From assembly GCA_019637795.1 (NCBI GenBank), contig JAHBUY010000002.1:969606-1033605 (forward strand): a stretch of 64,000 nucleotides of DNA, written 5' to 3'. The translations under genes and the position numbers were made by a program. Shown here piece by piece: positions 6,997-33,175 of the stretch. How positions within the stretch are numbered: the stretch's first letter is position 1; the number at the start of each line of letters is the position of its first letter. The notes under the pieces were generated by a model that did no database searches, had not been told where the DNA came from, and was given only the letters and a program-made list of their open reading frames with translations. Source of the DNA: a bacterium. Its GTDB lineage: Bacteria > Desulfobacterota > Binatia > HRBIN30 > CADEER01.

Positions 6997-7977
6997 ATGA
7001 CCGCCCCCTCCGCCCCCGTCGCCGCGCGCCTGCGCGCGGCGCTGCGCTTCGACGGCATCTGGTGGCGGAAGCTCGCCTGGCTGGGCTGCGTCTACGGCCC
7101 CGAATGGTGGAAGCAGGGCTCGCCGCCGCTGATCGCGGCGCTCATCTACGCCGGCGTCGGCCGCAACCGCCGCGGCGCCGTCACAAACCTGCAGCGCGTT
7201 CTCGGCGACCCCGATCCGCGGCGGGCGCGCCAGATGGCGCTGCGCATGTACGCCGAGTTCGCCCGCTGCATGACCGAGACGCTGGAGCACTTCGGACCCC
7301 GCCCGCAACCGGTGCGGATCGACGAGCCGACCCGCGACGTCGTCGGCGAGGCCCTGGCCGAGGGCCGCGGCCTGGTGCTGGTGACCGGCCACGTCGGCAA
7401 CTGGGACGTCGCCGCCCGCACCCTCGAGCAGTACGACCGCCCGTTCAACCTGGTGATGGCGCACGAGCGCAACGCCACCACCAGCGCCTACGCGCGCGCC
7501 ATCCGCGAGCGCGCCGGCATGCGGGTGATCTACTCCGACACCTCGGTGTTCTCGTCGCTCAACATGATCCGCGCCCTGCGCGACAACGAGATCGTCGCCA
7601 TCCAGCTCGACCGCACCCTCGGCGTCGGCACCACCCGCATGGTCGAGTTCTTCGGCGCCCCGGCGCCGTTCCCGACCGGGCCGTTCGTTCTCGCCCGCCT
7701 CGCCGGCGCGCCGCTGCTGCCGGTCTTCTTCCCGCGCCTCGGCACCCGCCACTACGCCATCCGCCTCGGCACCCGCCTGACCCTGCCGCGCGACGCCGGC
7801 GACGCGCCGGCGCTGGCGCGCGCCATGCGCGCCGTCGCCGCCGAGCTCGAGGACGTCATCCGCGAGTTCCCGCACCAGTGGTTCCAGTTCGCGCCCTTCT
7901 GGCCGGAGGACGCCGCCCCGAGCGCGCGCCAGCGACCGGCCGACCGCGACGCGCGAGTGCGCGGCCGGCGCGACTAG
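6997..7977 (+). CDS. lipid A biosynthesis (Kdo2-lipid IVA) lauroyl/myristoyl-type acyltransferase family protein (LpxL/HtrB-like)
   Basis: Lip_A_acyltrans features (WWRKLAWLGCVYGPEWW...LVTGHVGNWD...). It is divergent from the GT2 gene. Confidence 0.7.
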   Translation: MTAPSAPVAARLRAALRFDGIWWRKLAWLGCVYGPEWWKQGSPPLIAALIYAGVGRNRRGAVTNLQRVLGDPDPRRARQMALRMYAEFARCMTETLEHFGPRPQPVRIDEPTRDVVGEALAEGRGLVLVTGHVGNWDVAARTLEQYDRPFNLVMAHERNATTSAYARAIRERAGMRVIYSDTSVFSSLNMIRALRDNEIVAIQLDRTLGVGTTRMVEFFGAPAPFPTGPFVLARLAGAPLLPVFFPRLGTRHYAIRLGTRLTLPRDAGDAPALARAMRAVAAELEDVIREFPHQWFQFAPFWPEDAAPSARQRPADRDARVRGRRD

Positions 7978-8014: not shown

Positions 8015-8743
8015 CTAGGCCGCCAGCTCGGCGGCGATCTGCGCCCGCACCGTCTCGCGCAGGCGGTCGCGGTCCTCGTACGTCAGGCCGGCGGTGGCGA
8101 TCGGCGGCAGGATCACCAGCTCGGCCGAACCGGGGAGAATCGAGAGATACTGCCCCTTGGGCATGATGCGGGTCGTCCCCTTGCAGACCACGGGGACGAT
8201 GGGGACGCCGAGTTGGATGGCGGCGACGAAGGCGCCCTTGCGGAACGGCAGCAGCTCGCCGTCGGCGCTGCGCGTCCCTTCCGGGAAGATCACCAGCGAG
8301 CCGCCGTCGAGCGTCACCTTCTGCAGCCGCTCGATGGAGGCCAGGGGATCGTCGCGATCGATGGGAATCATCCCCATGGTGCGGAGCACGGCGCCGAGGA
8401 TCGGCTCGGCGAACATCTCGCGCTTGGCGGCGAACCGGGTCACCCCTGGCAGGAGGCCGAGCAGGGCGGCGATGTCGAAGTGGCTCTGGTGGTTGGGTGC
8501 GAAGATGTACGGCCCGGGGCCGAGCTGTTCGCGCCCGCGCACCCGGATGCGCACGCCGCACACCCGCATGAGGTTGCGCGCCTGCAGCTTGGCGAAGCGC
8601 CACGCCAGCGGCCGGCTGATCTGGTACAGGCCGATGGCCACCAGTCCGGACGAGAACAGCATGGCGCGGAAGAGCACGCGGTTGAGGGCGACGCGCAACC
8701 GCGTCGGCTCGGCGGCGCTGACGGCAACGGCATCGGCGGGCAT
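8015..8743 (-). CDS. plsC: 1-acyl-sn-glycerol-3-phosphate acyltransferase (PlsC family)
   Basis: HxxxxD motif (NHQSHFDI) and FPEGTRS motif. The Met (MPADAVAVS) at 8743 was verified. The 30 residues annotated upstream of this Met mirror the neighbouring gene because of a perfect palindrome and are not considered coding. Confidence 0.8.
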   Translation of the reverse strand: MPADAVAVSAAEPTRLRVALNRVLFRAMLFSSGLVAIGLYQISRPLAWRFAKLQARNLMRVCGVRIRVRGREQLGPGPYIFAPNHQSHFDIAALLGLLPGVTRFAAKREMFAEPILGAVLRTMGMIPIDRDDPLASIERLQKVTLDGGSLVIFPEGTRSADGELLPFRKGAFVAAIQLGVPIVPVVCKGTTRIMPKGQYLSILPGSAELVILPPIATAGLTYEDRDRLRETVRAQIAAELAA

Positions 8744-8746
8744 GCG

Positions 8747-8822
8747 GGTAGCAGTATCCAGCGCCCTCCGGCGGGGCAAGATACGCGGCTTGCCCCGCCG
8801 GAGGGCGCTGGATACTGCTACC
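8747..8822. promoter_or_regulatory. perfect 76-bp palindrome (34-bp arms, 8-bp loop) exactly filling the gap between divergent start codons
   Basis: The arm GGTAGCAGTATCCAGCGCCCTCCGGCGGGGCAAG (8747-8780) and the arm 8789-8822 are exact reverse complements. The loop is ATACGCGG. Three nt separate each end from the plsC ATG (8743) and the rSAM GTG (8826). Symmetric GATACT hexamers (-10-like) lie about 10 bp from each start. Confidence 0.6.
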
Positions 8823-8825
8823 GGC

Positions 8826-10178
8826 GTGCGCATCCTCCTCGTATCGCCGACGCACTACAACGCCGACGGCACGTTGCATAAGACGACCCGCTACTGGACC
8901 AGCGGCCTGACGCTGGCGACGCTCAAGGCGCTCACCCCGCCGGGACACGACGTGCGCATGGTCGACGAGCTGTTCCACGACGTCGACCTCGATTTCGACG
9001 GCGACGTCGTCGGCATCACCGCCATGGGACCGCAGATCCGCCGCGCCTACGAGCTCGCCGACCACTTCCGCGGCCGCGGCCGCAAGGTGGTGCTCGGCGG
9101 CACCTGGGTGACGCTCACCGCCGAGGCGTCGCTGCGCCACGCCGACGCCGTGGTCGCCGGCGAGGCCGAATCCGTCTGGCCGCAGGTCCTCGAGGACCTC
9201 GCCGCCGGCCGCAGCCGCGGCATCTACCGCGCCGCCCAGTGGCACGACCTGCGCGGTCTGCCGCGCGTCGATTACACCAGCCTGCCGCTGCTCAAGTACG
9301 ACGCCTTCAAGCGCAGTTGGCTCTACCGCATGTACTTCCACTGGCCGATCGTCTTCTCGCGCGGCTGTCCGCACCCCTGCGAGTACTGCGCCGTGCAGAC
9401 GTTCTACGAGCGCGGCTTCCGCACCCGCCCGGTGGACGAGGTGATCGCCGACCTGGAGGCGATCAAGGCGCTCGGCGCCAACCGCATCCTGTTCCTCGAC
9501 GACAACCCGATCGGCAATCCGACCGCGGCGAAGGAGCTGTTCCGCGCCATGGTTCCGCTGAAGCTGAAGTGGGCCAGCCAGTGCACGATCAACATCGCCC
9601 GCGATCCCGAGCTGCTCGACCTCGCGGCGCGCAGCGGCTGCGTCAGCCTGTCGATCGGCCTCGAGAGCATCAACGAGGACAGCCTCGAGACGATCGGCAA
9701 ACGCTTCAATCAGCCGCGCCGCTTCGACCGCGACCTGGCGGCGATCCGCGCCAAGGGCATCCAGGTGATCGGCCTGCTGATGGTCGGCCTCGACGGCGAC
9801 ACCCTCGATACCTTCCAGCGCTCGCTCGCGTTCCTGATCGACAACAAGGTGTCGTTCCTCAAGCTCTTCACGCCCTGCCCGTACCCCGGCACCAAGTACT
9901 ACGACGACATGCTGGCCGCGGACCGGATCACCATCCAGGACTGGGGCCGCTACGACTACGGCAGCCCGATCATCAAGCCGGCGCAGATGACCGCCGAGGA
10001 GATGATGAGCGGCTTCAAGACCGTCTACGAAGGCTTCTACTCGTCGCGCGCCATCGCCAAGCGCCTCTTCCCCCCGCCCGCCGGCAGCTATCTCGAGACC
10101 CTCGCCTACCTGGTCGCCAACCTGAAGGTGAACCGCTACCTGCGCTCGCACGAGAACGCCTGGGCGACGATCTCGTGA
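8826..10178 (+). CDS. B12-binding (class B) radical SAM enzyme
   Basis: N-terminal cobalamin-binding-like domain (LLVSPTHYN...GITAMGPQ), a CxxxCxxC cluster (CPHPCEYC) and a radical SAM core. A GTG start at 8826 was chosen because the upstream part of the 694-aa ORF is a mirror image of plsC created by the palindrome. Confidence 0.7.
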   Translation: MRILLVSPTHYNADGTLHKTTRYWTSGLTLATLKALTPPGHDVRMVDELFHDVDLDFDGDVVGITAMGPQIRRAYELADHFRGRGRKVVLGGTWVTLTAEASLRHADAVVAGEAESVWPQVLEDLAAGRSRGIYRAAQWHDLRGLPRVDYTSLPLLKYDAFKRSWLYRMYFHWPIVFSRGCPHPCEYCAVQTFYERGFRTRPVDEVIADLEAIKALGANRILFLDDNPIGNPTAAKELFRAMVPLKLKWASQCTINIARDPELLDLAARSGCVSLSIGLESINEDSLETIGKRFNQPRRFDRDLAAIRAKGIQVIGLLMVGLDGDTLDTFQRSLAFLIDNKVSFLKLFTPCPYPGTKYYDDMLAADRITIQDWGRYDYGSPIIKPAQMTAEEMMSGFKTVYEGFYSSRAIAKRLFPPPAGSYLETLAYLVANLKVNRYLRSHENAWATIS

Positions 10179-10208
10179 GAACGGCGCGACGCTCTTGGCT
10201 GACGCGAC

Positions 10209-10372: not shown

Positions 10373-10406
10373 CTGTCTCATCGGCCTGACGGCGGAACAG
10401 CCTCGC

Positions 10407-11726
10407 TCAGAGCTCGCGTAACGTCCCGCGCACCCGGAAGAGCCCGCCGTCGGCGGTGGCGCCGAAACGTCCGCGCGCCGTCGCGTCGTCGAAGCGTCGG
10501 TGGCGCGCCGCCAGCTCGGCGGCGAGCCCGGCGTCGCCGCCGAGCAGGTCGGCGGTGCCGGACATCAGGCGCACGAAGGCGGTGCGCGCCTCGAGCGGTC
10601 CCTCGGGGTTGAGCAGCTTGCGCGCCGTCCAGAAGTACGAGTCGGGATCGGTGTGGTGGTCGTAGAAGAAGTAGAGGAACTGGCGGTAGCGCTCGAAGGC
10701 GGCGCGGTAGCGCCGGTCGTAGTCGGCGAGGGCGTCGGCCGGCGACACGTTCCCGGCCAGCAGGCGCTCGACGGCGCGCGCCGCCAGGTAGCCAGCCATC
10801 GACGCCAGGTGCACGCCCGTGGAGAACACCGGATCGATGAAGCAGGCGGCGTCGCCGGCGAGCAGGTAGCCGGGGCCGTGGAAGGCGCGGCTGTCGTAGG
10901 AGTAATCGCGGATCACCCGCACCGGCGCGACGCGCCGGGCGGCGCGCGTCCGCGCCGCCACCGGCGCGCAGGCGGCGACCAGGCGCTCGTAGAGCGGCGT
11001 CGCGTCGCCGCCCGCCTCGCCGGCGAAACGGGTGGCGTCGACCACCGCGCCGACGCTGGTGGTGCCGTCGTGCAGCGGGATGAACCAGAACCAGCCATCG
11101 GCGAAGGCGGCGGAGAGGATGTTGCCGGCGGTGTCGCCGGCCAGGGGCTCGGCGCCGGTGAAGTAGGAGAAGACCGCCAGGTTCTTGAAGAAGGGATCGA
11201 AGCGACGCTGCCCGTCGCGCCGCCCGAGCAGCGCCTGCTGGCCGCTGGCGTCGATCACCCACGGCGCCCGCGCCTCGACCGCCGCGCCGCGCTCGTCGCG
11301 GGCGGCGACCCGGTTGCACGCGCCGTCGTAGGTCACCGTCTCGACCCGATGCGCCTCGCGGACGTCGACTCCGAGCGCCGCCGCGTGGCGTAGCAGGAGG
11401 TGGTCGAACTCCGCCCGCACGACGTGGAAGGCGTGCGGCCGGCCGCCGGGATCGTCGCGGAAGTAGAAGCTCCACGGTTCGGCGCGCGCCCCCCACACGA
11501 AGGTGCCGCCCGGTTTGCGCACGAACCCGGCCGCCTCGATCGCCGGCAGCACCCCCAGCGCCTCCAGCACCGGCATGGTCGCCGACAGCAGCGACTCGCC
11601 GATGTGGTAGCGCGGAAAGCGCTCGCGCTCGAACAGCAGCACCCGCGCCCCCGCCTGGGCGAGAAACCCGGCCGCGACGCTGCCCGCCGGGCCGCCGCCG
11701 ATGACGATGGCGTCAGCGTCGAGCAT
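10407..11726 (-). CDS. flavin-dependent halogenase (tryptophan-halogenase family)
   Basis: GxGxxG FAD fold (IVIGGGPAGSVAAGFLA) plus the diagnostic WxWxIP motif (GWFWFIPL). The Met (MLDADAIV) at 11726 was verified. The 52 codons upstream are Arg/Gly-rich junk. Confidence 0.8.
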   Translation of the reverse strand: MLDADAIVIGGGPAGSVAAGFLAQAGARVLLFERERFPRYHIGESLLSATMPVLEALGVLPAIEAAGFVRKPGGTFVWGARAEPWSFYFRDDPGGRPHAFHVVRAEFDHLLLRHAAALGVDVREAHRVETVTYDGACNRVAARDERGAAVEARAPWVIDASGQQALLGRRDGQRRFDPFFKNLAVFSYFTGAEPLAGDTAGNILSAAFADGWFWFIPLHDGTTSVGAVVDATRFAGEAGGDATPLYERLVAACAPVAARTRAARRVAPVRVIRDYSYDSRAFHGPGYLLAGDAACFIDPVFSTGVHLASMAGYLAARAVERLLAGNVSPADALADYDRRYRAAFERYRQFLYFFYDHHTDPDSYFWTARKLLNPEGPLEARTAFVRLMSGTADLLGGDAGLAAELAARHRRFDDATARGRFGATADGGLFRVRGTLREL

Positions 11727-11740
11727 GCCGTGCCTTCCGT

Positions 11741-12376
11741 TCAGCGCTTGCGCTTCTTCGCCGGCGCTGGCGTCGGGGCCGCCGCGACCGCCTGCTGCAC
11801 CGGTTCGTTGTTGCTGGGCGCGCCGCCGATGATCGCCGACACCTGACCGTCCGCGCCGAACTTGACCTCGAAGGTCACCCACCGGTTGCGCCAGTAGACC
11901 CAGGTGTCGGCGCTGGTCGATGGCGTGCGGTGGGTCGGCGGATAGCCGAGCGACATCAGCACCTGCTCGCGCGTCATGCCGCGCTCGACGCGGCCGTCAC
12001 GGATGGCCGCCTGCACCGACGGCGAGAACGTCGCGAAGCGCGCGTGCGGGTCGATCTCGACCAGGACCTTGGCGAAGAACTGCTGAGAGGTCTCCTGCTC
12101 CGTCCCGTACGCCTGGGTGAGCGTGACGTTGACGTCGGCGGCGCGAAAGCTCACCGACCTGGCGGTCATGCCCGTGACCGTCGCGGGACTCCCGAACGGC
12201 AGCAGGGCGCCAACCTGATAATTGGCGTCGACCACGTCGGCCGGATTTTCATAGTGGATATTGCAGCACGTGTAGAGCTGCCGCGCCTGCCATTGCTGCA
12301 GAACGCCCGGTGCCACCTTCGCCGCGCAGCCGGCAAGCACGAGCGCCAGCGCCGCGATCGTTCGTCGAAATCGCAT
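11741..12376 (-). CDS. lipoprotein of unknown function
   Basis: Lipobox signal MRFRRTIAALALVLAGCAAK. The Met at 12376 was verified. Ends 15 nt upstream of the halogenase start on the same strand, so likely co-transcribed. Confidence 0.55.
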   Translation of the reverse strand: MRFRRTIAALALVLAGCAAKVAPGVLQQWQARQLYTCCNIHYENPADVVDANYQVGALLPFGSPATVTGMTARSVSFRAADVNVTLTQAYGTEQETSQQFFAKVLVEIDPHARFATFSPSVQAAIRDGRVERGMTREQVLMSLGYPPTHRTPSTSADTWVYWRNRWVTFEVKFGADGQVSAIIGGAPSNNEPVQQAVAAAPTPAPAKKRKR

Positions 12377-12498
12377 GCAGCCTCCTGTCCCCGCCGCCGC
12401 TGCAGTCGGCGCGGGGCGGCTCGCATCTAGACCGCGGCCGGAGCACTTCGCAACCGCCGACTCCCGGCGCGCCGCCAGGCGCATCGCCCGCGACCCCC

Positions 12499-12912
12499 TC
12501 AGCACCCGATGGCGGCGAGGTGTCCCTCCTCGGCGTAGGCGAGCAGACCGGCGTCGCGGGTGACCAGGCGGTAGCCGCAGGCGCGCGCGGTGGCGGCGAG
12601 GATGCGATCCACCGGATCGCGCGGCGGACAGCCGGGCAGGAAGGAGGAGGCGATCAGCGCGGCGGGATCGGTGGCCGCCAGGGCGACGCCGGGCACGGCC
12701 AGCAATCGCCGGAACCACGCTTCCGGGCTGATCGAGATCGTCAGCCGGCTGCGCGCCACCAGCAGGCCGATCTCCCAGGCGCTCATCGGCGACACGAACA
12801 CCGGGCGCCCCGCCGCCGCGGCCGCGTCGAGCGCCGCCGCCGCGGCGCTCGCGATCGGCTGGTCCTCGGCGATCCAGATGGCCGCGCAGGTATCGAGCAG
12901 CAACGGCATCAT
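12499..12912 (-). CDS. vapC: PIN-domain ribonuclease toxin (VapC-like)
   Basis: PIN signature (MPLLLDTCAAIWIAED...ATDPA...LVTRD). A tandem ATGATG start overlaps the stop of the upstream small gene. Confidence 0.7.
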   Translation of the reverse strand: MMPLLLDTCAAIWIAEDQPIASAAAAALDAAAAAGRPVFVSPMSAWEIGLLVARSRLTISISPEAWFRRLLAVPGVALAATDPAALIASSFLPGCPPRDPVDRILAATARACGYRLVTRDAGLLAYAEEGHLAAIGC

Positions 12913-13313
12913 TCGGCGCGGTCGCCCCACTCCGGATCCGCCGGCGCGGCGAGATCGGTGCCGGGCGCGATGCCGAGGAGACCCTTCAGGGCGCCCCGCA
13001 AGGGGTGGCGCCCCCGCGCCACGTAGGCCGGCGCCGCCTCGGCCACCGCGGGCGGCGCCGCCGGCGCCGGCTCGGCAACGCGGCGGAACACCAGCTTCCG
13101 GCCGCTCATGTCGACATTCGCGCTCTCGTAGCCAGCCCGCTTCCAGGCACGGGTGATGACACTGCTCTGCTCGTTGTTGCTCCACCACGCCCGCTGGCCG
13201 GCACTCGGGGGAAGGGGGGCACCGATGATTCGCTCGATGGCCTCGAACGTCATCGGGACCTCCTTCTCCGTCCGACCCTTCAGGTAGTCCTCCAGCGGTC
13301 CGTACTTGGACAT
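12909..13313 (-). CDS. putative antitoxin partner of VapC
   Basis: Small 134-aa ORF immediately upstream, with its stop overlapping the toxin start (ATGATGA). The Ala/Pro-rich acidic C-terminus ending ...DPEWGD is typical of VapB-type tails. Confidence 0.5.
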   Translation of the reverse strand: MSKYGPLEDYLKGRTEKEVPMTFEAIERIIGAPLPPSAGQRAWWSNNEQSSVITRAWKRAGYESANVDMSGRKLVFRRVAEPAPAAPPAVAEAAPAYVARGRHPLRGALKGLLGIAPGTDLAAPADPEWGDRAE

Positions 13314-13431
13314 GACAACTCCCTCTCGAGACTGCTGATAACAGTTTACCTACATTAAGACAACACTGTTGTTCCGCGGTCGGATCACCGCGTCAGCATC
13401 GAGTGGCACGCGAGGCCGCCGCCGATCCGCG

Positions 13432-14862
13432 CTATGCCGCGCGGCGCAGCTTGGCGCGCATGTAGACCGCGGCCGAGCTGGCCATGCGGCCGATGAAGCG
13501 CGGCTCGCTCGCCATCAGGCGGGCCATGCCCCAGAGCACGTCCGGGCGCGAGTAGAAGGCGCGGTAGCAGCGGGTGAAGGCCGCTTCCAACTCGGCCTCG
13601 CTGAGGCCGCGGGGGATGAACACGAACTGCATCGCGTTCATGCGCTGCCAGTCCTCGCTGAAGTCGCCGTGCTGGTGGATGGTCGGGTAGGCGGGGGTGC
13701 CCGGATAGGGCGTGAACTTGGTGATCTGGCAGAAGTCGAGCTCGGCGACGCGCAGGAAGGCTTCGGTCTCGCGCAGGCTGTCGCTGGTCTCGGTGGGGTG
13801 GCCGAGCATGAGGTAGCCCTTGGTGCGGATGCCCGCCTGGCGGGTCAGGCGCAGCGTCTCGCGCATGCGCGGGATGCGCACCTCGCGTTTCACGGTGTCG
13901 AGCACGCGCTGCGAGCCGGATTCGATGCCGTAGGCGATCTGCCAGCAACCGGCGCGCCGCATCAGTTGCAGGGTCGGCAGGTCGAGCAGGTTGGGATGGC
14001 TGTTGCAGCTCCAGGTGAGGTCGAGCTGGGCGTCGATCAGCGCCTGGCAGAGATCGACGACGCGCTGTTTGCGCACCGTGAACAGGTCGTCGAGGAAGAG
14101 GATGTGGCGGGCGCCGCGCTCGGCGAGCTCGCGGCACAGCGCCACGACGCGCGCGACGCCGTGCAGCCGGCCCTTGCGGCCGGAGGTCGAGCGATCGCAG
14201 AAGACGCAGGTGAACGGGCAGCCGCGCGAGGTGATGAGGGTGGCCACCGGCGTCCGCGGGTAGCCGAACAGCGTCGGCTGGAAGCGGTGGGGGAAGTCCG
14301 GCAGCAGGTCCCAGGCGGGCGTCGGCAGCGCGTCGAGATCGTCGATGTACGGGGCGCGCGGGTTGGCAACGACCATTGCGCCGCGGCGGAAGGCGACCCC
14401 CGGCAGGTCGTCGACCGCCGCGCCCTGTTCGAGCCGCTCGAGCAGGGCGAACAGCGCCACCTCGCCCTCGCCGGCGATGCCGTAGTCGAAGCTCGGGAAG
14501 GCGGTCAGCGTCCGCTCGGGCACGGCGCTGACGTGGGCGCCGCCGACGATGGTGACGACGGCGGGCCGCGCCCGCTGCACGCGCTCGGCGATGCGCGCCG
14601 CGTTGGTGACCGAGATCGTCGTCGCCGACAGTCCGAGATAGTCGGGGCGCAGCGCCTCGATGCGGCGGGCGACCTCCTCGACCGGCGTCCCCTGTCCCTT
14701 GGCGTCGATCAGGTGCACGCGATAGCCGCGCTGGCGCGCCACCGCCGCGAGCATCAGCATCCCCATGCCGGGGATCGTCTCCTCGCTCTGGCGCAGGCGG
14801 TCGCGGCGGCGGTCCCAGAAGAGATACGGCGGTTCGCAGAGGACCAGCGTTCGCCCAGCCAT
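13432..14862 (-). CDS. B12-binding (class B) radical SAM enzyme
   Basis: Cobalamin-binding-like N-terminal domain, a CPFTCVFC (CxxxCxxC) cluster and a radical SAM core (LITSRGCPFTCVFCD). 476 aa. Confidence 0.8.
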   Translation of the reverse strand: MAGRTLVLCEPPYLFWDRRRDRLRQSEETIPGMGMLMLAAVARQRGYRVHLIDAKGQGTPVEEVARRIEALRPDYLGLSATTISVTNAARIAERVQRARPAVVTIVGGAHVSAVPERTLTAFPSFDYGIAGEGEVALFALLERLEQGAAVDDLPGVAFRRGAMVVANPRAPYIDDLDALPTPAWDLLPDFPHRFQPTLFGYPRTPVATLITSRGCPFTCVFCDRSTSGRKGRLHGVARVVALCRELAERGARHILFLDDLFTVRKQRVVDLCQALIDAQLDLTWSCNSHPNLLDLPTLQLMRRAGCWQIAYGIESGSQRVLDTVKREVRIPRMRETLRLTRQAGIRTKGYLMLGHPTETSDSLRETEAFLRVAELDFCQITKFTPYPGTPAYPTIHQHGDFSEDWQRMNAMQFVFIPRGLSEAELEAAFTRCYRAFYSRPDVLWGMARLMASEPRFIGRMASSAAVYMRAKLRRAA

Positions 14863-14940
14863 GGGTCAGCGCTTACCCGCACGCCGCCGGCGCGGCAAGA
14901 TGAATCACCGCCGCGCGCCGGCCATCGGCCGCGGACCGCT

Positions 14941-15495
14941 TCACCACACGAAGGGAATCAGACGCTTCACCTGGCGGCAGTACGCGGCGTACGCGGCGCC
15001 GAGTTGCGCGTGCAGGCGCCGCTCCTCCTGCGCGGCGCGCACCGCCAGCGCGGCGAACAGCGCCAGCCAGGTCAGCGCCAGCGGCGGCCGCGCCGCGACG
15101 ATCGCCGGCGCCGCGGCGGCCATCAGGTAGGCGAGGTAGAGCGGATTGCGCACCAGGCCGAAGGGGCCGTCGCGGCGCAGCCCTGACGGCGCCTCGTCGG
15201 GCAGCGGCCGGTGCCGCAGCGGCCCGATCTGCAGCCGGGCGCGCCACCAGAAGATCTGCGCCGCGGCGTAGAGCGCGATGCCGAGGCCGCCGCGCAGGCG
15301 CGGCACCTGCGGCATGACGCTCACCGCGGCGCAGGCGAGGGTGACGTGGACGGCGACCAGCAGCGGCGCGGCGCGCACCCAGAGGCGCTCGCGCGCCGAG
15401 TAGTGGGGCAGCGCCGCGGTCATCGCCTCGGCGCGGAAGGCGAAGAAGGGGATCCAGCCGACGCCGAAGATGGCCCCGAGCGCGATCGGGATCAT
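14941..15495 (-). CDS. isoprenylcysteine carboxyl methyltransferase (ICMT)/phospholipid methyltransferase family membrane protein
   Basis: C-terminal ICMT/PEMT signature (GPFGLVRNPLYLAYL...EERRLHAQLGAAYAAYCRQVKRLIP). The Met (MIPIALG) at 15495 was verified. Its ATGA overlaps the upstream gene. Confidence 0.7.
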   Translation of the reverse strand: MIPIALGAIFGVGWIPFFAFRAEAMTAALPHYSARERLWVRAAPLLVAVHVTLACAAVSVMPQVPRLRGGLGIALYAAAQIFWWRARLQIGPLRHRPLPDEAPSGLRRDGPFGLVRNPLYLAYLMAAAAPAIVAARPPLALTWLALFAALAVRAAQEERRLHAQLGAAYAAYCRQVKRLIPFVW

Positions 15496-16490
15496 GGGCT
15501 CGTCGCCCGGCGCGCCGTCGGCAGGCGCGCCGGCGAGACGCCGAGCAGCGACAGTGCCAGCAGTCCGATCAGGACGAACAGCGTCTCGTGCAGACGCAGG
15601 ATGACGCCGACCACGAAGCCGAGATCGGCGCGCCCGGTGGTGGCGCCGACCGCGAGCACCTGTGTCGCCTCCAGCGCGCCCAGGGCCGCCGGCGTCGGCA
15701 CCGCGCGCGCCATGCCGCCACCGAGCAGCACCATCAGCAGCACCGGCAGCTCGAGGTCGAGGCCGAAGGCGCCGAGCAGCGCCCGGTACTGCAGCACCAC
15801 GACCAGCTCGATCAGCGCCGTGAGCGCGATGCCGGCGACGAAGGTGGCGCGGTGGGCGGCGAAGAACCCCAGCAGGTGGTCCTCGACGCGGCGCAACCCG
15901 TCCAGCCAACCCGCGTGGCGCCCGACCCATCGGCGGGCGCGCGACCCGTACAACGGCGCCAGTGGCCGGCCGCCGCGCCCCAGCCGCACGACCAACGCCG
16001 CCAGCAGGACCAGCAGCGCGGCGACCCCGGCGCCGACGAGCCAGGTGGCGCGCGCCGACGTGCCGGCCATGGCGGCCGAGAACACGGCCAGGTAGGCGGC
16101 CACCGCGAGCAGATTGCCGATGACCTCGAGCAGCCGGTCGATCGCCACCCCCGCGCTCGCCGACGCGAGCGGGGTCGCGCCGGCGCGCGCCAGCACGGCG
16201 CGCAGCGGATCGCCGCCCACCCGCGCCAACGGCAGCAGCGAGGCGACGCCGTCGCCGGCCAGGCGCGCCGCGGCGATCCGCCCCACGCCGACCGGCGCCC
16301 CAACCGCCGCCGCCATCACCCGCCAGCGCCCGGCCTGCAGGCCGAGCACCACCGCCGACCACGCCGCATACTCGACCAGGCCGCGCGGCGAGGCGTGGCG
16401 CAACGCCGCCAGCGCGCCGCCGAGGCCGAACCACCATGCCAGCGCCGCCAGCAGCGCGGCGCCGAGCAGCAGCGGGACGCCGCCCTTCAC
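15492..16490 (-). CDS. UPF0104 / lysylphosphatidylglycerol-synthase-TM-like (flippase-like) membrane protein
   Basis: Multi-TM protein (KGGVPLLLGAALLAALAWWF...). Inferred GTG start at 16490 overlapping the deacetylase stop (GTGA). Further upstream the ORF overlaps the deacetylase in another frame. Confidence 0.6.
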   Translation of the reverse strand: MKGGVPLLLGAALLAALAWWFGLGGALAALRHASPRGLVEYAAWSAVVLGLQAGRWRVMAAAVGAPVGVGRIAAARLAGDGVASLLPLARVGGDPLRAVLARAGATPLASASAGVAIDRLLEVIGNLLAVAAYLAVFSAAMAGTSARATWLVGAGVAALLVLLAALVVRLGRGGRPLAPLYGSRARRWVGRHAGWLDGLRRVEDHLLGFFAAHRATFVAGIALTALIELVVVLQYRALLGAFGLDLELPVLLMVLLGGGMARAVPTPAALGALEATQVLAVGATTGRADLGFVVGVILRLHETLFVLIGLLALSLLGVSPARLPTARRATSP

Positions 16491-17302
16491 TGCCACGGCG
16501 CCGCCTCCCCTGGCGGCGCGGCGACCTGCGGAAAGAGGTCGCGGATGGCGCCGAAGGCGCGCGCGCGCAACAGGCGCTCGAGGCGCGGCGCCAGGCGCGC
16601 GCGGCCGGCGCGCAGCAGCCAGCGCGCCGCGCCCGGCGCGCTCGGCGAATCGGGATCGAGCTCCCACGGATGGAGGTAGAAGACGCCGCTGCCGACGTCG
16701 CGCTCGAAGCCGCGCAGGCCGTGCGCCAGCAGGCGCGGCGGCAGCAGTCGCAGCCCCCAGCCGCTGGCCGCCGGCAGGTGCCAGAAGCGGCAGAGCCGCA
16801 GCACCGCCACCGGCACCTCCCAGAGACCGTTGTGGTGGCGGTACGGCTGCCGCGGCGAGACCAGCTCGAGCCCCGGCGGCCGGTCGTTCGGCAGGACGCT
16901 CGAGTCGTAGGAGTAGCCCGCCGCGGCGAGTTGCTCGATCGGCCAGCGCACGCCGGCGCGGATGGCGAAGTAGGGCGCGCGGTAGCCGCGCACCGGTCGG
17001 CCGCTGACGTCCTCGAGCAGCCGCCGGGCGCGCTCGACGTCGGCGCGGAACTCGCGCCAGAGTTGGTTCGCCAGGTGATGGTGGGCGTGGCCGTGACTGG
17101 CGAGCTCGTGGCCGGCGTCGGCGATGCGCCGCACCAGCGCCGGATGCCGCTCGGCGACGGCGCCGAGCACGAAGAAGGTCGCCCGCGCCCCGGCGGCCGC
17201 GAACTGCTCGAGGAGCGCGTCGGTGTTACGCTCGACCCGGCCGCCGCCGGCGGCGGCCGCGAGGCCGCCGTCGTGAAACCAGTCCTCGACGTCGACCGAC
17301 AT
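16487..17302 (-). CDS. polysaccharide deacetylase (NodB-homology/CE4) family protein
   Basis: Met (MSVDVEDWFH) at 17302 was verified. NodB-type motifs (DVEDWF, HGHAHH). Confidence 0.75.
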   Translation of the reverse strand: MSVDVEDWFHDGGLAAAAGGGRVERNTDALLEQFAAAGARATFFVLGAVAERHPALVRRIADAGHELASHGHAHHHLANQLWREFRADVERARRLLEDVSGRPVRGYRAPYFAIRAGVRWPIEQLAAAGYSYDSSVLPNDRPPGLELVSPRQPYRHHNGLWEVPVAVLRLCRFWHLPAASGWGLRLLPPRLLAHGLRGFERDVGSGVFYLHPWELDPDSPSAPGAARWLLRAGRARLAPRLERLLRARAFGAIRDLFPQVAAPPGEAAPWQ

Positions 17303-17408
17303 GGCGTGGCGCGGCGCTGTCACGGTGCGCGGAACGTAGCCCGCCGGCGGCGCCAGTTCCACGACGGCGCGGTCCCGGCGGGCGCCGCCGCGGCGCGGGC
17401 GCGGGACG

Positions 17409-18602
17409 TTGACGCTTCGCCGCCCGCGGGCTAGCGGAGGCTCGGTGGAGATCTTCACGCTCGATGCCGACGACGTCCAGGCGCGCCTGGCCGCCGCAAC
17501 GCGGGTCGCTGACGCAGCCCGCGACGACGTGCTGGCGCGCGCCCGCGCCGCCCAGCCGCTCGAGGTCGACGACCTCGCGGTGCTGTGGACGGCGCCCTTC
17601 GACGCGGAGACGCTGTACGCCGCCGCGTGCGCGGCGCGCGCCCTTCGCCCGCGTTCGCTCGAGACCTTCGCGCCCCTCTACCTCACCAACACCTGCGACG
17701 CCGAATGCCGGATGTGCGGCATGCGCCGCGACAACGCGGCCCTGCGCCGCGAGACGGTCGACCTGCCGGCGGTCGAGGCCCAGCTCGAGATCCTGCGCCG
17801 GCGCGGCATGCACGGAGTCGCGCTGCTGACCGGCGAGTATCGCGCCGGCGGGCGCGACTGGGCGCTGGCGCACGTCAACCAGGCGCTGCGGCGCGCGACG
17901 ACGCTCGGCTTCCGCCACGTCCTGATCAACATCGGCGCCATCGACGCACACGAGTACGACGCGCTGCTCGCCGGCCTCGCCCGCCACGCCGGCGACGACG
18001 GCGGCCCGAAGCTGACGATGTGCACCTTCCAGGAGACCTACTCGCGGCCGCTGTACCGCGCCTTCATGGGCGACAGCGCGGACAACCCGCGCGCCGATTT
18101 CGAGCGCCGATTGGCGAACTTCGATCGCGCCCGCGCCGCCGGCATGCGGGTCGCCAACCCCGGCATCCTGGTCGGTCTCAATCCCGACCTCGGCTTCGAG
18201 CTGCTGGCGCTCGCGCTGCACACCCGGCACCTGCAGCGCCACGGGATGGAGGTCTACCTGTCGGTGCCGCGCCTGCGGCAGATCGCCGGCCGCGCCAACC
18301 AGCGCGGCGCCGGCGACGCGGCCTTCGTCCGCCTCGTCTCGATCCTGTCGCTCGGCCTGCCGGAGGCGAAGATCGTCCTCACGACGCGCGAGTCGGCGGA
18401 GATCCAGCGCCGCCTGGTGCCGCTGGTCGGCGTGCTCTCCGCCGGCTCGGCCGCGGTCGCGCCCTACACCAGCTCGGGCGCCCGTTTCCCGCTCGAGGCG
18501 AGCCAGTTCGAGGTCGTCGACCAGCGCCCGTTCGAAGCGATCCTCGGCGAGCACCTCCGTCCGGGCGTGCGCATCGAGAACTTCGACCCGCCGGCCGCGT
18601 AG
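17409..18602 (+). CDS. ThiH/HydG-family (tyrosine-lyase type) radical SAM enzyme
   Basis: FAPLYLTNTCDAECRMCGM matches the ThiH/HydG F-x-PLYLSN-C-xxx-C-xx-CGF motif. The downstream ALLTGEY matches ThiH LLVTGEH. The antisense 442-aa ORF is Arg/Gly-rich junk. Confidence 0.7.
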   Translation: MTLRRPRASGGSVEIFTLDADDVQARLAAATRVADAARDDVLARARAAQPLEVDDLAVLWTAPFDAETLYAAACAARALRPRSLETFAPLYLTNTCDAECRMCGMRRDNAALRRETVDLPAVEAQLEILRRRGMHGVALLTGEYRAGGRDWALAHVNQALRRATTLGFRHVLINIGAIDAHEYDALLAGLARHAGDDGGPKLTMCTFQETYSRPLYRAFMGDSADNPRADFERRLANFDRARAAGMRVANPGILVGLNPDLGFELLALALHTRHLQRHGMEVYLSVPRLRQIAGRANQRGAGDAAFVRLVSILSLGLPEAKIVLTTRESAEIQRRLVPLVGVLSAGSAAVAPYTSSGARFPLEASQFEVVDQRPFEAILGEHLRPGVRIENFDPPAA

Positions 18603-18605: not shown

Positions 18606-19805
18606 TCACGGTCGATCGAGGAGCAGGGCGGTCATCGCGCCGCCGCGGGCGCTGCCGCACACCAGGGCGCGGCGGAGATCGGCGGCGGCGGCCTGGCGCG
18701 GCGCCAGGCGCAGCGCGGTGGGGATCGGCGTCTCCAGGTGGCAGAGCGGCGGGACCGCTTGCTCGCGCAGCGCCAGGCAGGCGGCGGCCGCGGTCATGGC
18801 GCCGGCGGCGCCGAAGTCGCCGATCGCGCCCTTGATCGAGGTCACGGTGGCGGCGCGGATCGCCGGCACGGCGGCGAAGAGGTCGAGCTCGCAGGCGTCG
18901 AGACGGCGCGACGAATTGGCGGCGCCGCACACCAGGTCGACCGGCGCCCCGGCGCACAGCGCCGTCAGCGGCGCGATGGCGGCCGGCGCCTGCAGCGGCC
19001 AGTCGTAGCGCGGCGCTTCGCTCGCGCAGGTCGCGGTCGCGACGATGCGGGCATAGATCGGCGCGCCGCGCCGGCGCGCCCGCTCGAGCGGCTCGAGCGC
19101 CAGCATCGCCGCCCCTTCGCCGACCACGACGCCGCTGCGCGCCGCGTCGTAGGGGCTGGCCCATTGGCGACCGCCGCGCTGGCCGGCGAGGGCGCGGGCC
19201 CGGTGCAGGACGCGCACCAGCACGGCCGCGATCTCGTCGGCGCCGCCGGCGAGCACGAGATCGGCGCGGCCGCGGCGCACCGCGTCGACGCCGAGCGCGA
19301 TGGCGGCCTCGCCGGACACCTCCGCCTGCGAGACGGTGAAATTGACGCCGCTGAAGCCGAATTCCATCGCCGCGTAGCTGGCCGGGGCGTTCAGCACCAG
19401 GTTGGGAAACGCCATCGGGCTCACCCCGGCGGGGCCCTTCTGGAACAGGCGGTCGAGTTGCTGCACCGACTCGGTCGCCGCGCCGAGAGCGGAGCCGAAG
19501 ACGATGCCGGCGCGGGCGCGATCGAGCGTCGCCAGGGCGCGCGCGTCGTCGAGCGCCATGCGGCAGGCGGCGACGGTCATGCGCGACAACGCGTCCATGC
19601 GCCGGTAGTGCGTCGAGGCGACGAGCTCGCGGGGGGAGAAGTCGCGCACCGCGGCGGCGCTCGGCGGCAGGCCGTCCGCCAGCGCCAGACCGTCGATCGG
19701 CGCGATGCCGGAGCGGCCGGCGCGCAGCGCGTTCCAGAATTGGCGCGGCCCGACGCCGATCGGACTGACGACGCCGATGCCGGTGACGGCGACGTCGTCG
19801 CTCAT
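18606..19805 (-). CDS. ketosynthase-like protein lacking the active-site Cys (KS-beta / chain-length-factor-like)
   Basis: Thiolase fold is present, but the TACSS position reads FTVSQAEVSG (Gln replaces Cys). The Met (MSDDVAV) at 19805 overlaps the stop of the upstream KS (ATGA). Confidence 0.75.
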   Translation of the reverse strand: MSDDVAVTGIGVVSPIGVGPRQFWNALRAGRSGIAPIDGLALADGLPPSAAAVRDFSPRELVASTHYRRMDALSRMTVAACRMALDDARALATLDRARAGIVFGSALGAATESVQQLDRLFQKGPAGVSPMAFPNLVLNAPASYAAMEFGFSGVNFTVSQAEVSGEAAIALGVDAVRRGRADLVLAGGADEIAAVLVRVLHRARALAGQRGGRQWASPYDAARSGVVVGEGAAMLALEPLERARRRGAPIYARIVATATCASEAPRYDWPLQAPAAIAPLTALCAGAPVDLVCGAANSSRRLDACELDLFAAVPAIRAATVTSIKGAIGDFGAAGAMTAAAACLALREQAVPPLCHLETPIPTALRLAPRQAAAADLRRALVCGSARGGAMTALLLDRP

Positions 19806-21016
19806 GGCGTCGCCTCGGGGGCGGCGCCGAGGACCACGCTCGTATTGTTGCCGCCGAAGCCGTACGAGTTCGAGAGCACGGTGCGCAGGGCCGCCGGGCG
19901 GCTGCGCGCCGGCACGTAGTCGAGATCGCACTCGGGATCCGGCTCGCGCAGGCTGACGGTCGGCGGAAGGAAACCGCCGCGCAGCGCCAGCAGCGCCGCC
20001 AGCGCCTCGATGGCGCCGGCGGCGGCGAGGCAGTGTCCGACCTGCGACTTGGTCGACGACACCGGCACCGCATAGGCGCGCGGTCCGAGCACCGCCTTGA
20101 TGGCGCGCGTCTCGACGGCGTCGTTCAGGGGCGTCCCGGTGCCGTGCGCGTTGACGTAGTCGATGCGGTCGGCGTCGACGCCGGCATCGGCGAGGGCGCG
20201 CCGCATCGCCAGGATGGCGCCGGCGCCGTCGGGGCGCGGCTGGGTGAGATGGTGCGCGTCGGCGCTGACCCCGTAGCCGAGGAGCTCGCCGAGGATCGGC
20301 GCGCCGCGGCGCGCGGCGGCCTCCCACGCCTCGAGCACGAACAGGGCCGCCCCTTCGCCCAGGGTCAGGCCGGCGCGGGCGCGATCGAACGGCCGGCAGG
20401 GGACGCGATCGAGGGCCTGCAGGACGTTGAACCCCGAGTAGGTCATGCGGCACAGCGACTCGGCGCCGCCGCACAGCACCGCGGTCGCCTGGCCGCCGCG
20501 GATCCAGTCGGCGGCGATGCCGAGGGCGTTGGCGCCGGAGGAGCACGCGGTGGACACCGTGACGCGCGGGCCGCGGCTGCCGATCAACGCCGCGACGGCG
20601 TCGGTGGCGACCGCGATCGGCGTCTCGAGCCAATCGCGCAGCGGCGCCCGCGCTCCCGTGCCGGCGCCTTCGATGCGGTAGCTCTCCTCGCCGCCGGCGA
20701 GCCCGCCGGTGGTGGTGCCGAGCACCACGCCGCAGGTCCGGCCGTCGTCGAGCCCGCTGCCCCGCCAGGCCTCCGCGGCGGCGACCACGGCGAGCCGCGC
20801 CGTGTGCGAGAGCCGCCGCGCCGCGCCGCTCGGAATGGCCTCCGGCAGCGGCGGCGGCGGCGCTTCCGCGGCGCAGGCCGTGCGGTAGCCCGCGGCGGCG
20901 AAGCGGGTCAGCGCGCCGATGCCGCACCGGCCCTCGCGCAGGCCGGACGCGAAGGCCTCGACCCCGACGCCGAGGGCGTTGATGCTGCCGATGCCGGTGA
21001 TCGCGACCCGGGTCAT
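19802..21016 (-). CDS. beta-ketoacyl synthase (KS-alpha / FabF-like, active)
   Basis: Active-site Cys (VSTACSS), His (NAHGTGT) and His (KSQVGHCL) motifs are present. Confidence 0.85.
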   Translation of the reverse strand: MTRVAITGIGSINALGVGVEAFASGLREGRCGIGALTRFAAAGYRTACAAEAPPPPLPEAIPSGAARRLSHTARLAVVAAAEAWRGSGLDDGRTCGVVLGTTTGGLAGGEESYRIEGAGTGARAPLRDWLETPIAVATDAVAALIGSRGPRVTVSTACSSGANALGIAADWIRGGQATAVLCGGAESLCRMTYSGFNVLQALDRVPCRPFDRARAGLTLGEGAALFVLEAWEAAARRGAPILGELLGYGVSADAHHLTQPRPDGAGAILAMRRALADAGVDADRIDYVNAHGTGTPLNDAVETRAIKAVLGPRAYAVPVSSTKSQVGHCLAAAGAIEALAALLALRGGFLPPTVSLREPDPECDLDYVPARSRPAALRTVLSNSYGFGGNNTSVVLGAAPEATP

Positions 21017-21169: not shown

Positions 21170-21943
21170 TCACGCCATGGTCAGGCCGCCGTCGACGGCG
21201 AGGGTGGCGCCGGTGACGTAGGCGGCGGCCGGCGAGGCGAGGAAGCGGATCGCCTGCGCCACCTCGTCCGGCTGGCCGACGCGGCCGAGCGGGACGTGGC
21301 CGAGGTGGCGCTGGCGCAGCGGCGCCGGCATGTCGGCGATCAGACGGGTGTCGACCAGACCGGGGCAGACGGCGTTGACGGTGATGGCATAGCGCCCGAC
21401 CTCGCGCGCCAGCGACTTGGTGAAGCTGAGCAGCCCGCCCTTGGCGGCGGCGTAGTTGGCCGCGCCCTCCTGGCCGAGCAGCGCCGCCGGCGAGACGACG
21501 TTGATGATCCGCCCCCAGCGCCGCTTGATCATCGGCCGCAACGCCTGCCGGGCGCACAGGAAGGCGCCGCGCAGGTTGACGGCCAGCACCTCGTCCCACT
21601 GGGCGGGGCTGAGCAGCATGGCGAGGCCGTCGCGCGTCACCGCGGCGTTGTTGACCAGGATGTCGACGCCGTCCCAGCGTTTGCGCAGGTGGGCGAACAT
21701 CGCCTCGACCTGCGCCGCGTCGGCGACGTCCGCCTGCACCACCTCGACCTCGCCGCCGTGCGCGCGCAGCCCCTCCGCGGTCTCCTCCGCCTCCAGCGCC
21801 GAGCGCGCGTAGTTGACGGCCACCGCGGCGCCCGCCGCCGCCAGCACCTCGGCGGTGGCGCGGCCGATGCCGCGCGAGGCGCCGGTGACCAGGGCGCGCC
21901 GGCCGTCGAGGCGCCAGGGATCGTTCAGCGCAGCAGGCGCCAC
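21170..21943 (-). CDS. 3-oxoacyl-ACP reductase (FabG-like SDR)
   Basis: Rossmann [12 protein letters not shown], and the YAAAK catalytic motif (NYAAAKGG). A GTG start at 21943 was inferred, giving a 19-nt overlap with the upstream rSAM gene. The rest of the 723-aa ORF overlaps that rSAM out of frame. Confidence 0.75.
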
Positions 21944-23298
21944 AACTGGCCCTTGATGCGGCGGTCGCGCAGGCGGCGCAGCACGGCGATGTTGGTCTTG
22001 ATGCCGAGCCCCGGCACGATCCAGTTCGGCTGCTGGCGGGCATAGGCGTCGATGCGATCGATGAGCGCGTCGCCGAGCCCCGGCGCGACGTAGAAGCGGG
22101 GCTCGATCAACGGGTCGTCGGCGTCGATGAGGCCGTCGCGCAGCGCGATCTCGACCATGCCGGTGCCGGGCAGGATGCGGATGCCGGTCATCGCGATCAC
22201 CGCCGTCGGCCGCAGCTCCTCCATCAGGGCGATGGTCTGGTCGATGCTCTCCGCGGTCTCGCCGGGGCCGCCGAAGATCAGGCTGTGGCAGAACTTGAGC
22301 CCGTGCGCCGCGAACAGCGCCGAGGTGCGGCGCAGATCGTCGAGGGCGAACTCCTTGCGCAGGTTGGCGATCAGGGTCGGCGCTCCGGAATCGGTGCCGA
22401 GCTCGATGGCGCGGCAGCCGGAGCGGGCCATCAGGTCGCACAGCTCGGCGTCGACGAACTTGGGGTTCAGGTAGGCGGACCACTCGATGTCGAGGTCGCG
22501 GGCGATGAGCTCGCGGCAGATCGCCTTGGCGTGGCGCAGCGGCAGATTGAAGATGTTGTCGACGAAGAACCAGTGGCGCGCCCCGGTCTCGCGCCGCGCC
22601 GCCTCGATCTCGTCCACCACCGCCGCCGGGCTGCGCACGCGCACGGTCGCGCCTTCGATCAGCGGATAGCTGCAGAACACGCACTCGAAGACGCAGCCGC
22701 GCTTGGTCTGGATGTTCAGCGCGCCCCCGCGCTCGTAGTAGCGGTGCCAGTCGAAGGCGGCGCGGCGCGGCGCGCCGGCGTCGTCGAGACGGCGGATGCG
22801 ACCGGTCGGGGTGACGCAGACGCCGCGGCCCGCGGGCTCGCAACGCATCGCCGCCGTCGAGCGCAGCGACGCGCCGGCGGCCAGGCGCTCGAGCACCCAG
22901 GGGAAGGCGAGCTCGCCCTCGCCGACCACGCCGACCTCGGCGTCGAGCCAGCGCATCAGCGTGCCCGGCATCACCGTGAAGCCGGCGCCGCCGAGCACGA
23001 TCGGCGCCGGCGTCGCGGCGCGCACGGTCTCGATCAGGGCGCGGTAGTCGGGCACGTAGGAGGTGGTCTGCGGATAGGCCGACGAATCGAGGTTGCGCAG
23101 CGAGATGCCGACCGCGTCGGGCGCGAAGTCGCGCACCTGCGCCGTCAGCGCCGCCCGCGGATCGCCGGCGAAGCAGCAGTCGAACGTGGCCACCGTGTGG
23201 CCGTGCTGCTCGGCGACCGTCGCCATGTAGGCGGCGCCGAGCGGATACACCGGATCGGGGAGGTGTTCCGTGTTGGCGGAGATGAGCAGAACGCGCAT
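21925..23298 (-). CDS. B12-binding (class B) radical SAM enzyme
   Basis: The ATG ([12 protein letters not shown]) at 23298 was verified. Cobalamin-binding-like N-terminal domain and a CVFECVFC cluster. Confidence 0.8.
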
Positions 23299-24230: not shown

Positions 24231-24261
24231 CCTCACTCCTCCGCTTCCGGCGGATGCCGGT

Positions 24262-30391: not shown

Positions 30392-30394
30392 GGC

Positions 30395-33175
<2,781 letters not shown>

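Follow-up and report, generated by a model that had tools for sequence, protein, structure and literature searches.

A stretch of 64,000 nucleotides from a bacterium of the Binatia (positions 969,606 to 1,033,605 of contig JAHBUY010000002.1, GenBank assembly GCA_019637795.1), hereafter the window, carries on its minus strand four consecutive genes at 13432–17302, named A, B, C and D here, that are predicted to encode a deacetylase, a PF03706/UPF0104 membrane protein, a membrane methyltransferase and a cobalamin-binding radical S-adenosylmethionine (SAM) enzyme. Because the window has a G+C content of ~72%, its raw open reading frame (ORF) lists are noisy, and the genes were delimited with a frame plot of G+C at third codon positions (GC3) and a GC3-scored gene call. 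The frame plot and the domain matches confirmed the four genes given in a preliminary description of this DNA, all on the minus strand and at the coordinates stated there. The corresponding proteins carry KF840_ locus tags (NCBI metagenome-assembled genome, MAG). The genes and their junctions, the latter read in the sequence, are the following (aa, amino acids; nt, nucleotides).

16487..17302, minus strand: gene A, CE4 (NodB-fold) deacetylase with C-terminal DUF3473, 271 aa (PF01522, PF11959)
16487..16490, minus strand: GTGA overlap, stop of A and start of B
15492..16490, minus strand: gene B, PF03706/UPF0104 (LPG_synthase_TM) "flippase-like" polytopic membrane protein, 332 aa, GTG start
15492..15495, minus strand: ATGA overlap, stop of B and start of C
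14941..15495, minus strand: gene C, ICMT/PEMT-superfamily integral-membrane SAM methyltransferase, 184 aa (motifs and profile match)
14863..14940, minus strand: spacer between C and D, 78 nt, no coupling
13432..14862, minus strand: gene D, predicted cobalamin-binding (class B) radical SAM enzyme of an unnamed, highly conserved subfamily, 476 aa

For comparison we collected ~115 related loci (numbered L001 onward), D-anchored ones from GTDB species representatives and C-anchored ones from metagenome contigs, and viewed each 10 kb to either side of the anchor gene. The GTGA and ATGA overlaps of the preliminary description are both present in the window, and their counterparts recur in these loci: at the B/C boundary 43 of 53 cases have a 4-nt NTGA overlap and five more a 1-nt overlap (48/53 together), and at the A/B boundary the overlap measures 4 nt in 14 of 33 and is possibly longer in 10 more. 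Since the junction overlaps recur across related loci, the couplings exceed chance. The C/D junction never shows a 4-nt overlap, its gaps measuring either 19–110 nt or about 480–750 nt. In 36 related loci (L015, L018, L020, L052, L120 and 31 others) the interval of 480–750 nt is occupied by a conserved antisense gene that encodes a BamE/SmpA-like lipoprotein (~125 aa); the window lacks this gene and shows the compact form of 78 nt. As C and D stand 78 nt apart, only A, B and C, three genes and not four, are translationally coupled, and of the tightly coupled four-gene operon first proposed the A-B-C part stands while D, 78 nt downstream, drops out. Judged from these junctions, A-B-C is a tight, presumably co-translated unit, with D and a ThiH-like gene (see below) as constant neighbours that would be separately initiated. 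An Rfam scan of the whole window returned no cobalamin riboswitch or other RNA. A promoter and terminator scan of 10200–17700 likewise returned no such site, an outcome that is uninformative at 72% G+C.

The linkage itself is well conserved. In C-anchored loci B lies directly upstream of C in 28 of 30, A upstream of B in 11 of 13, and D at most 1 kb downstream in 17 of 23. In D-anchored loci A-B-C is found upstream in 10 of the 16 in which D is at least 69% identical to that of the window and in 1 of the 16 in which it is less than 69% identical; D is distributed more widely than A-B-C. A gene for a ThiH/NosL-like radical SAM enzyme is divergent from A in 21 of 22 loci, a linkage as tight as that of D. 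Gene order and overlaps are kept while protein identity drops to 42–60%, in dozens of independent loci with several phylum-level labels (mostly Candidatus Binatia, and also Deltaproteobacteria, Myxococcales/Polyangiaceae, Thermodesulfobacteriota and Terriglobales). The scattering in relatives that the preliminary description had named as contrary evidence was thus looked for by synteny, and the order and overlaps of A-B-C proved conserved, not scattered. Among cultured organisms the best relatives of D reach at most 35% identity, and their plasmids, searched by tblastn with B and C, gave no match; a tractable host for A-B-C was not found.

The product of gene A, for which an alternative GTG start exists at 17323, belongs to the CE4 (NodB-fold) deacetylases with 78.5 bits against PF01522 (5.4e-22, cut-off 23.1 bits) and also matches DUF3473 (PF11959, 73.3 bits, 2.3e-20). 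With TIGR03006, the XrtA-system polysaccharide deacetylase family, it scores 215.8 bits, under the cut-off of 276.2, and so stays outside that family. Across 20 homologues its metal and catalytic motifs are kept (DvEDW, GhE..sHG..H, RAPyf, fYlHPWElD). Hydropathy gives neither a hydrophobic segment nor a signal peptide, and A is predicted to be cytoplasmic. Gene B is a member of PF03706 (69.2 bits, cut-off 33.4) and of TIGR00374 (45.3 bits, cut-off 43.2), with at least 6–8 hydrophobic helices by hydropathy, and falls far outside HpnL (TIGR03476, 32.2 bits, cut-off 195.65).

Gene C reaches the Pfam gathering score of neither PEMT (21.2 bits, cut-off 25) nor ICMT (17.3 bits, cut-off 24), and scores 40.8 bits against NF040696. 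Its family is marked by the motifs RRDGPFGLVRNPLY and QEERRLHAQLG..Y..YC..V..LIPFVW; the canonical ICMT C-terminal SAM-binding motifs (R[HN]PxY ... EE..L...G..Y..Y) are invariant or nearly so in an alignment of 20 C sequences, and the family profile finds the solved Methanosarcina enzyme Ma-ICMT (4a2n) with E=2.7e-5 over residues 31–183. As a family it is narrow, with 271 clusters at E<=1e-5, every one of 181–186 aa, and the protein is polytopic by hydropathy. At L071 C is tandemly duplicated, and L098 has a ketosynthase (KS), a chain-length-factor (CLF) gene and C without A or B.

Gene D has the N-terminal B12-binding domain (PF02310, 82.2 bits, 3.3e-23), the radical SAM core (PF04055, 77.5 bits, 1.8e-21) and the CX3CX2C motif (CPFTCVFC at residue 215) of a class B radical SAM enzyme, and is without a hydrophobic segment by hydropathy. 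Relatives at 71% identity or more fill over 120 clusters. Its top NCBIfam match is HpnJ (TIGR03471), with 185.6 bits against a cut-off of 577.6, which leaves it outside the HpnJ equivalog; identity is 26% to genuine HpnJ and 28–29% to BchE, and the closest solved structure is AprD4 (6fd2, E=1.3e-30). On top of CX3CX2C, cysteines C243, C272, C286, C306 and C378 are invariant in 24 sequences; these five could hold an auxiliary Fe-S cluster.

A neighbour-joining tree divides the D sequences into three clades, each with its own gene context. Clade T1 has the A-B-C-D arrangement. In clade T2 an LpxL-type acyltransferase directly follows D and is itself followed by a PlsC-type acyltransferase and a family 2 glycosyltransferase (GT2); in the clades with D below 69% identity an LpxL-type gene stands directly downstream of D in 12 of 20 loci. 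In clade T3 (7 species) D is paired divergently with another PF03706 protein, which matches the Pfam model at 1.8e-34 and has no BLAST similarity to B. At the T3 loci (L028, L030, L032, L034, L043, L047, L051) this pair lies at about 8.9–11.5 kb and is followed by a gene for a PCMT-type carboxyl methyltransferase, the remaining neighbourhood being housekeeping. These contexts link D time and again to PF03706 proteins and enzymes of glycolipid assembly. In two T1 sub-clades, D stands with none of these genes within 10 kb, which either limits this link or reflects relocation. That D is found without A-B-C also means that it may have a more general substrate.

Around A-B-C-D lie further genes of lipid synthesis. 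As the same gene set in nearly the same order recurs on the independent long contigs L002, L062/63 and L121, the four genes are a sub-cassette within a larger, conserved cluster for lipid biosynthesis (~18 kb) that is typical of uncultured Binatia-like bacteria. The other genes of this part of the window are the following.

6168..6833, minus strand: small soluble GT2, candidate head-group synthase (PF00535, 2e-16)
6997..7977, plus strand: LpxL/PatA-family acyltransferase (PF03279, 1.5e-31)
8015..8743, minus strand: PlsC-type acyltransferase (PF01553, 7.1e-33), start 8743 or 8833
~8742..10178, plus strand: second B12-binding radical SAM enzyme, conserved in the cluster
10407..11726, minus strand: flavin-dependent halogenase (PF04820, 2.3e-44; CmlS-like, 332 bits)
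11741..12340, minus strand: lipoprotein with LAGC lipobox and BamE/SmpA-like segment, conserved after D
12499..13313, minus strand: toxin-antitoxin-like pair of a PIN-domain gene (12499–12912) and a DUF7662 gene (12909–13313)
17445..18602, plus strand: ThiH/NosL/HydG-type radical SAM enzyme (aromatic amino-acid lyase type), divergent from A
18606..21016, minus strand: KS (19802–21016) and CLF-like partner (18606–19805), 4-nt overlap
21170..21943, minus strand: FabG-type ketoreductase (TIGR01830, 278.6 bits)
21925..23298, minus strand: TIGR04072 "lipid biosynthesis B12-binding/radical SAM protein" (381.8 bits, above the cut-off of 360)
23415..24236, minus strand: further lipoprotein

The GT2, which lacks a hydrophobic segment by hydropathy, has AglJ (91 bits) and the polyprenyl-phosphate-N-acetylgalactosamine (GalNAc) synthase PpgS (86 bits) as its top NCBIfam matches, both under cut-off, and is co-clustered in L025, L036–38, L056, L066, L079 and L121. 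It sits, like the acyltransferases, 7–10 kb off within the same cluster. The best NCBIfam match of the LpxL/PatA-family enzyme is a phosphatidylinositol mannoside acyltransferase (104.6 bits, cut-off 209), and the PlsC-type enzyme is 68% identical to an acyltransferase of L002. A plus-strand ORF of 673–694 aa (from 8094) is an over-extended form of the second radical SAM gene, its first third being antisense to the PlsC-type gene; the enzyme probably starts at ATG 8742 (478 aa), so that the two genes start back to back. The halogenase keeps the motifs GGGPAG (GxGxxG) and WFWFIP (WxWxIP). In homologues of the 11741–12340 lipoprotein the BamE matches are faint or weak. The PIN/DUF7662 pair stands between D and the lipoprotein gene only in the window and in the near-identical Logan contig L001 among the ~115 loci; several of the long contigs have an aromatic ammonia-lyase gene (PF00221) at this position, and no such gene was found anywhere in the window. 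The ThiH/NosL-like enzyme (TIGR04158, 245 bits, cut-off 400; ThiH, 150.7 bits; motif CDAECRMC) shares an intergenic region of ~140 nt (17303–17444) with A. The TIGR04072 family, originally associated with the anammox "ladderane" cluster, is found here beside KS/CLF and FabG in a Binatia-like genome of 72% G+C. Just past the lipid cluster, at 27939–33175 on the minus strand, a single-domain response regulator lies between two large hybrid histidine kinases rich in PAS domains, and at 57555–61075 (minus strand) an MBOAT acyltransferase, a possible carrier protein (ORF of 80 aa) and an FkbH-like protein make up a separate small cluster unrelated to the cassette.

The notion of a self-contained four-gene operon cannot be upheld in this setting, as D is uncoupled, often parted from C by the antisense gene and frequent without A-B-C, a fifth gene (ThiH/NosL-like) is as tightly linked, and the likely glycosyltransferase and the acyltransferases belong to the same cluster. 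The suggestion of a pathway acting on a membrane-embedded substrate fares better, for it fits both the lipid-synthesis context and the characterised systems that join a deacetylase to a UPF0104 protein (PMC10128005, PMC12713373).

Three such systems bear comparison. In Clostridioides difficile, hexSDF, without which a hexosamine glycolipid is not made, is an operon for a lipid glycosyltransferase, a polysaccharide deacetylase and a protein consisting of the MprF flippase domain only (PMC10128005). The two loci have in common an enzyme of the polysaccharide-deacetylase family and a PF03706-type membrane protein, and the glycosyltransferase of Hex has a candidate counterpart in the GT2 of the window; in Hex an N-acetyl intermediate leads to the hexosamine glycolipid (PMC10128005). 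They differ in that the Hex glycosyltransferase is adjacent and of the monogalactosyldiacylglycerol-synthase type whereas the candidate GT2 of the window is 9 kb off, and in that Hex is without methyltransferase, radical SAM and dedicated acyl-chain genes; A and B are likened to HexD and HexF by description. In Pseudomonas aeruginosa, gpgSDF, which includes a UPF0104 protein, takes phosphatidylglycerol (PG) through N-acetylglucosaminyl-PG to glucosaminyl-PG (PMC12713373). Here again a glycosyltransferase, a cytoplasmic deacetylase and a UPF0104 membrane protein act on a membrane lipid (PMC12713373), and the predicted locations are the same, with the deacetylase and the glycosyltransferase cytoplasmic and the flippase in the inner membrane. 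GpgD is, however, of the COG3233 type and GpgS of GT4, which makes the components analogous and not orthologous, and Gpg has three genes without methylation or radical chemistry. The arrangement of these synthase-deacetylase-flippase (SDF) systems, with deacetylase and PF03706/UPF0104 genes in one operon, is also that of A and B (GTGA overlap, adjacency kept).

The only known system that joins a GT2, a deacetylase, a B12-binding radical SAM enzyme and a PF03706 protein is hpnI-hpnJ-hpnK-hpnL, and on the Mycetohabitans plasmid pBRH01 hpnK overlaps the PF03706 gene by 4 nt, as A overlaps B. Roles have been given to HpnI, HpnK and HpnJ, the radical SAM enzyme being thought to remodel the deacetylated aminosugar (PMC13459092), and HpnL is described as a protein without known function (10.1101/2025.07.29.667474). 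Against this likeness, D and B are under the HpnJ and HpnL cut-offs, the deacetylase families differ, the order is J-K-L there and A-B-C-D here with the ICMT-like gene extra, and the lipid of the window would, judging from its genes, derive from a fatty acid or polyketide synthase whereas that of hpn is a hopanoid. Hopanoid genes (shc, hpnH and others) were found neither among the scanned window proteins nor in related loci.

In ArnC/ArnD/ArnEF and PpgS, too, a small GT2 puts an N-acylated aminosugar onto a lipid phosphate; ArnD, of the CE4 family, deacylates at the cytoplasmic face, and a dedicated membrane protein then flips the product. There the lipid is a mere carrier, the flippase is of another family, and methyltransferase and radical SAM enzymes are lacking. 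Aryl-polyene and "ladderane-type" (TIGR04072) clusters have in common with the window KS/CLF, a ketoreductase, one or more acyltransferases and a GT2; those described are without an A-B-C-D cassette, a ThiH-like radical SAM enzyme or a halogenase, and among the scanned proteins of the window's cluster no acyl carrier protein (ACP), dehydratase, adenylating enzyme or LolA-like/MMPL exporter was found. GalNAc is part of aryl-polyene lipids, which an acyltransferase and a glycosyltransferase assemble (10.1101/2020.12.19.423268), and the Kuenenia "ladderane" cluster holds a polysaccharide-deacetylase-like gene along with B12/radical SAM genes (PMC2649909); for these two reasons an N-acetylhexosamine on such a lipid is plausible. 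On plasmid pAZKH of Azoarcus sp. KH32C (L117, 9.9–14.4 kb) a 35%-identical B12-radical SAM gene lies beside genes for an ICMT-family methyltransferase, a KS, an ACP and a PAP2 phosphatase. The ICMT-family gene shares with C only the generic C-terminal motif, and the locus may serve as a tractable distant analogue of the C-D pairing.

As to novelty, the preliminary description did not recognise the gene order as a described system. This has to be qualified for the deacetylase with its overlapping PF03706 gene, which is the hexSDF/gpgSDF/hpnIJKL pattern, and appears to hold for the remainder. The core logic is known, since the pair of deacetylase and UPF0104 protein is the core of HexSDF, GpgSDF and hpnIJKL; what appears undescribed is the extension by a methyltransferase and a B12-radical SAM enzyme, the ThiH-like gene as a constant partner and the setting in a lipid cluster of Binatia. 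Literature searches for the gene combination, for DUF3473 with radical SAM and for Binatia lipid clusters found no published description.

We consider it somewhat better than an even bet that A-B-C(-D) is a cassette for tailoring and translocating a lipid head group, of the synthase-deacetylase-flippase kind and extended by a methyltransferase and a cobalamin radical SAM enzyme, within a lipid cluster. From the genes present, their linkage and their intact motifs we infer the following course. The KS/CLF, FabG and radical SAM genes would build, together with the ThiH/NosL-like enzyme and the halogenase, an unusual acyl chain, probably aromatic-primed and halogenated, and the LpxL- and PlsC-type acyltransferases would assemble or acylate the anchor. 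The PpgS/AglJ-like GT2 would add an N-acetylhexosamine to a membrane lipid at the cytoplasmic face, and the soluble CE4 enzyme A would strip the N-acetyl group to expose the amine. C could then methylate the membrane-embedded intermediate, either at the new amine (PEMT-like) or at a carboxylate (ICMT-like), and D could bring about a radical C-methylation or ring rearrangement, acting on the aminosugar or on the lipid next to it; HpnJ, GenK and AprD4 carry out such chemistry on aminosugars. B would carry the finished lipid to the outer leaflet, from where BamE-like lipoproteins may pass it onward. Alternatively, the LpxL-type enzyme might re-acylate the freed amine with the aryl or halogenated chain of the cluster; Nod factor and lipid A are made by the same logic. 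A, C and D all keep their catalytic or cofactor motifs, and as A, D and the GT2 are without hydrophobic segments and B and C are polytopic, the chemistry is expected at the cytoplasmic face, with flipping thereafter. We entertain, more tentatively, a wider idea: a B12-radical SAM enzyme and a PF03706 protein (HpnJ/HpnL, D/B, and D with the T3 protein, D/B3) might form a general two-component unit for lipid head-group remodelling in which the membrane protein presents or accepts the lipid for the radical reaction, and which in Binatia-like bacteria, with CE4 and ICMT-type enzymes, would give a halogenated aryl-polyketide lipid a kind of aminosugar head group not seen before, methylated or carbocyclic.

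Several observations weigh against the head-group cassette. Every carrier is a MAG or a metagenome contig, the A-D run itself has no glycosyltransferase, the candidate GT2 being 9 kb off with other genes between, and the flippase role of PF03706 proteins is putative, in HexSDF and GpgSDF as elsewhere. L025 is a natural variant with A-B-D and without C; at L004, L011, L019, L021–24 and L026 a D of at least 70% identity stands without A-B-C or any other cluster gene within 10 kb, and D is as distant from HpnJ as from BchE. The main rival has D act on the acyl chain and not on the sugar: two functions would lie side by side, A-B-C for the head group and D, like the other two B12-radical SAM enzymes of the cluster, for C-methylation or cyclisation of the hydrocarbon chain, with the product in common and the substrate moiety not. 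We hold this to be possible, though on the unlikely side. The lack of translational coupling between C and D, the antisense gene that often parts it from C and its presence without A-B-C speak for this rival, as do the fixed order of D with LpxL and PlsC acyltransferases in clade T2, the KS, ACP and ICMT-family methyltransferase genes that adjoin the 35%-identical enzyme on pAZKH, and the TIGR04072 lipid radical SAM enzyme of the cluster itself. But D recurs beside PF03706 proteins of two unrelated sequence types, as HpnJ does beside HpnL, and both AprD4 (its nearest solved relative) and HpnJ (its best model) act on glucosaminyl substrates, weak as these similarities are.

It is improbable that the cassette modifies an exopolysaccharide of the XrtA/PEP-CTERM type, or an envelope polysaccharide intermediate, in place of a glycolipid end product. 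The top NCBIfam model of A is that of the XrtA-system deacetylase (215.8 bits), its closest cultured and nearest named relatives are annotated as XrtA-system deacetylases of exopolysaccharide loci (37–44% identity), which also counts against a glycolipid cassette, and the GT2 resembles polyprenyl-phosphate sugar synthases; yet A scores under the family cut-off, and neither the 18 cluster genes nor the conserved neighbours included one for an exosortase, a polymerase, chain-length control or polysaccharide export, the constant partners being KS, acyltransferases, halogenase and radical SAM enzymes. The exopolysaccharide/XrtA assignment was set aside as being without supporting neighbour genes. 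Direct orthology to the hopanoid side-chain genes hpnJ, hpnK and hpnL, with bacteriohopanetetrol cyclitol ether as the product, is far less probable still. The functional classes and the deacetylase/PF03706 coupling are those of hpnIJKL, and HpnJ and HpnL are the top NCBIfam matches of D and B, but the scores fall far short (185.6 vs 577.6 for D, 32.2 vs 195.65 for B), D shares 26% identity with genuine HpnJ, A belongs to CE4 and not to the HpnK family, and no squalene-hopene cyclase or other hpn gene is among the scanned window proteins; the family scores and the pairwise identity led us to reject it. Least credible of all is an adjacency by chance or mere synteny with no functional coupling, which is refuted by the order and overlaps kept at 42–60% protein identity across dozens of loci.

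If the head-group cassette is as we favour it, the synthase-deacetylase-flippase route to cationic aminoglycolipids (HexSDF 2023, GpgSDF 2025) would gain methylation and cobalamin-radical chemistry and would extend to an uncultured phylum (Binatia). Should that model be wrong, the genes would still make up a well-delimited and widely conserved orphan lipid cluster. If it is right, testable roles would follow for HpnL-type PF03706 proteins, as partners of HpnJ-type radical SAM enzymes, and for the D family, as a lipid head-group modifier, and the GT2 with A, B, C and D would offer a compact set for finding a new lipid class.

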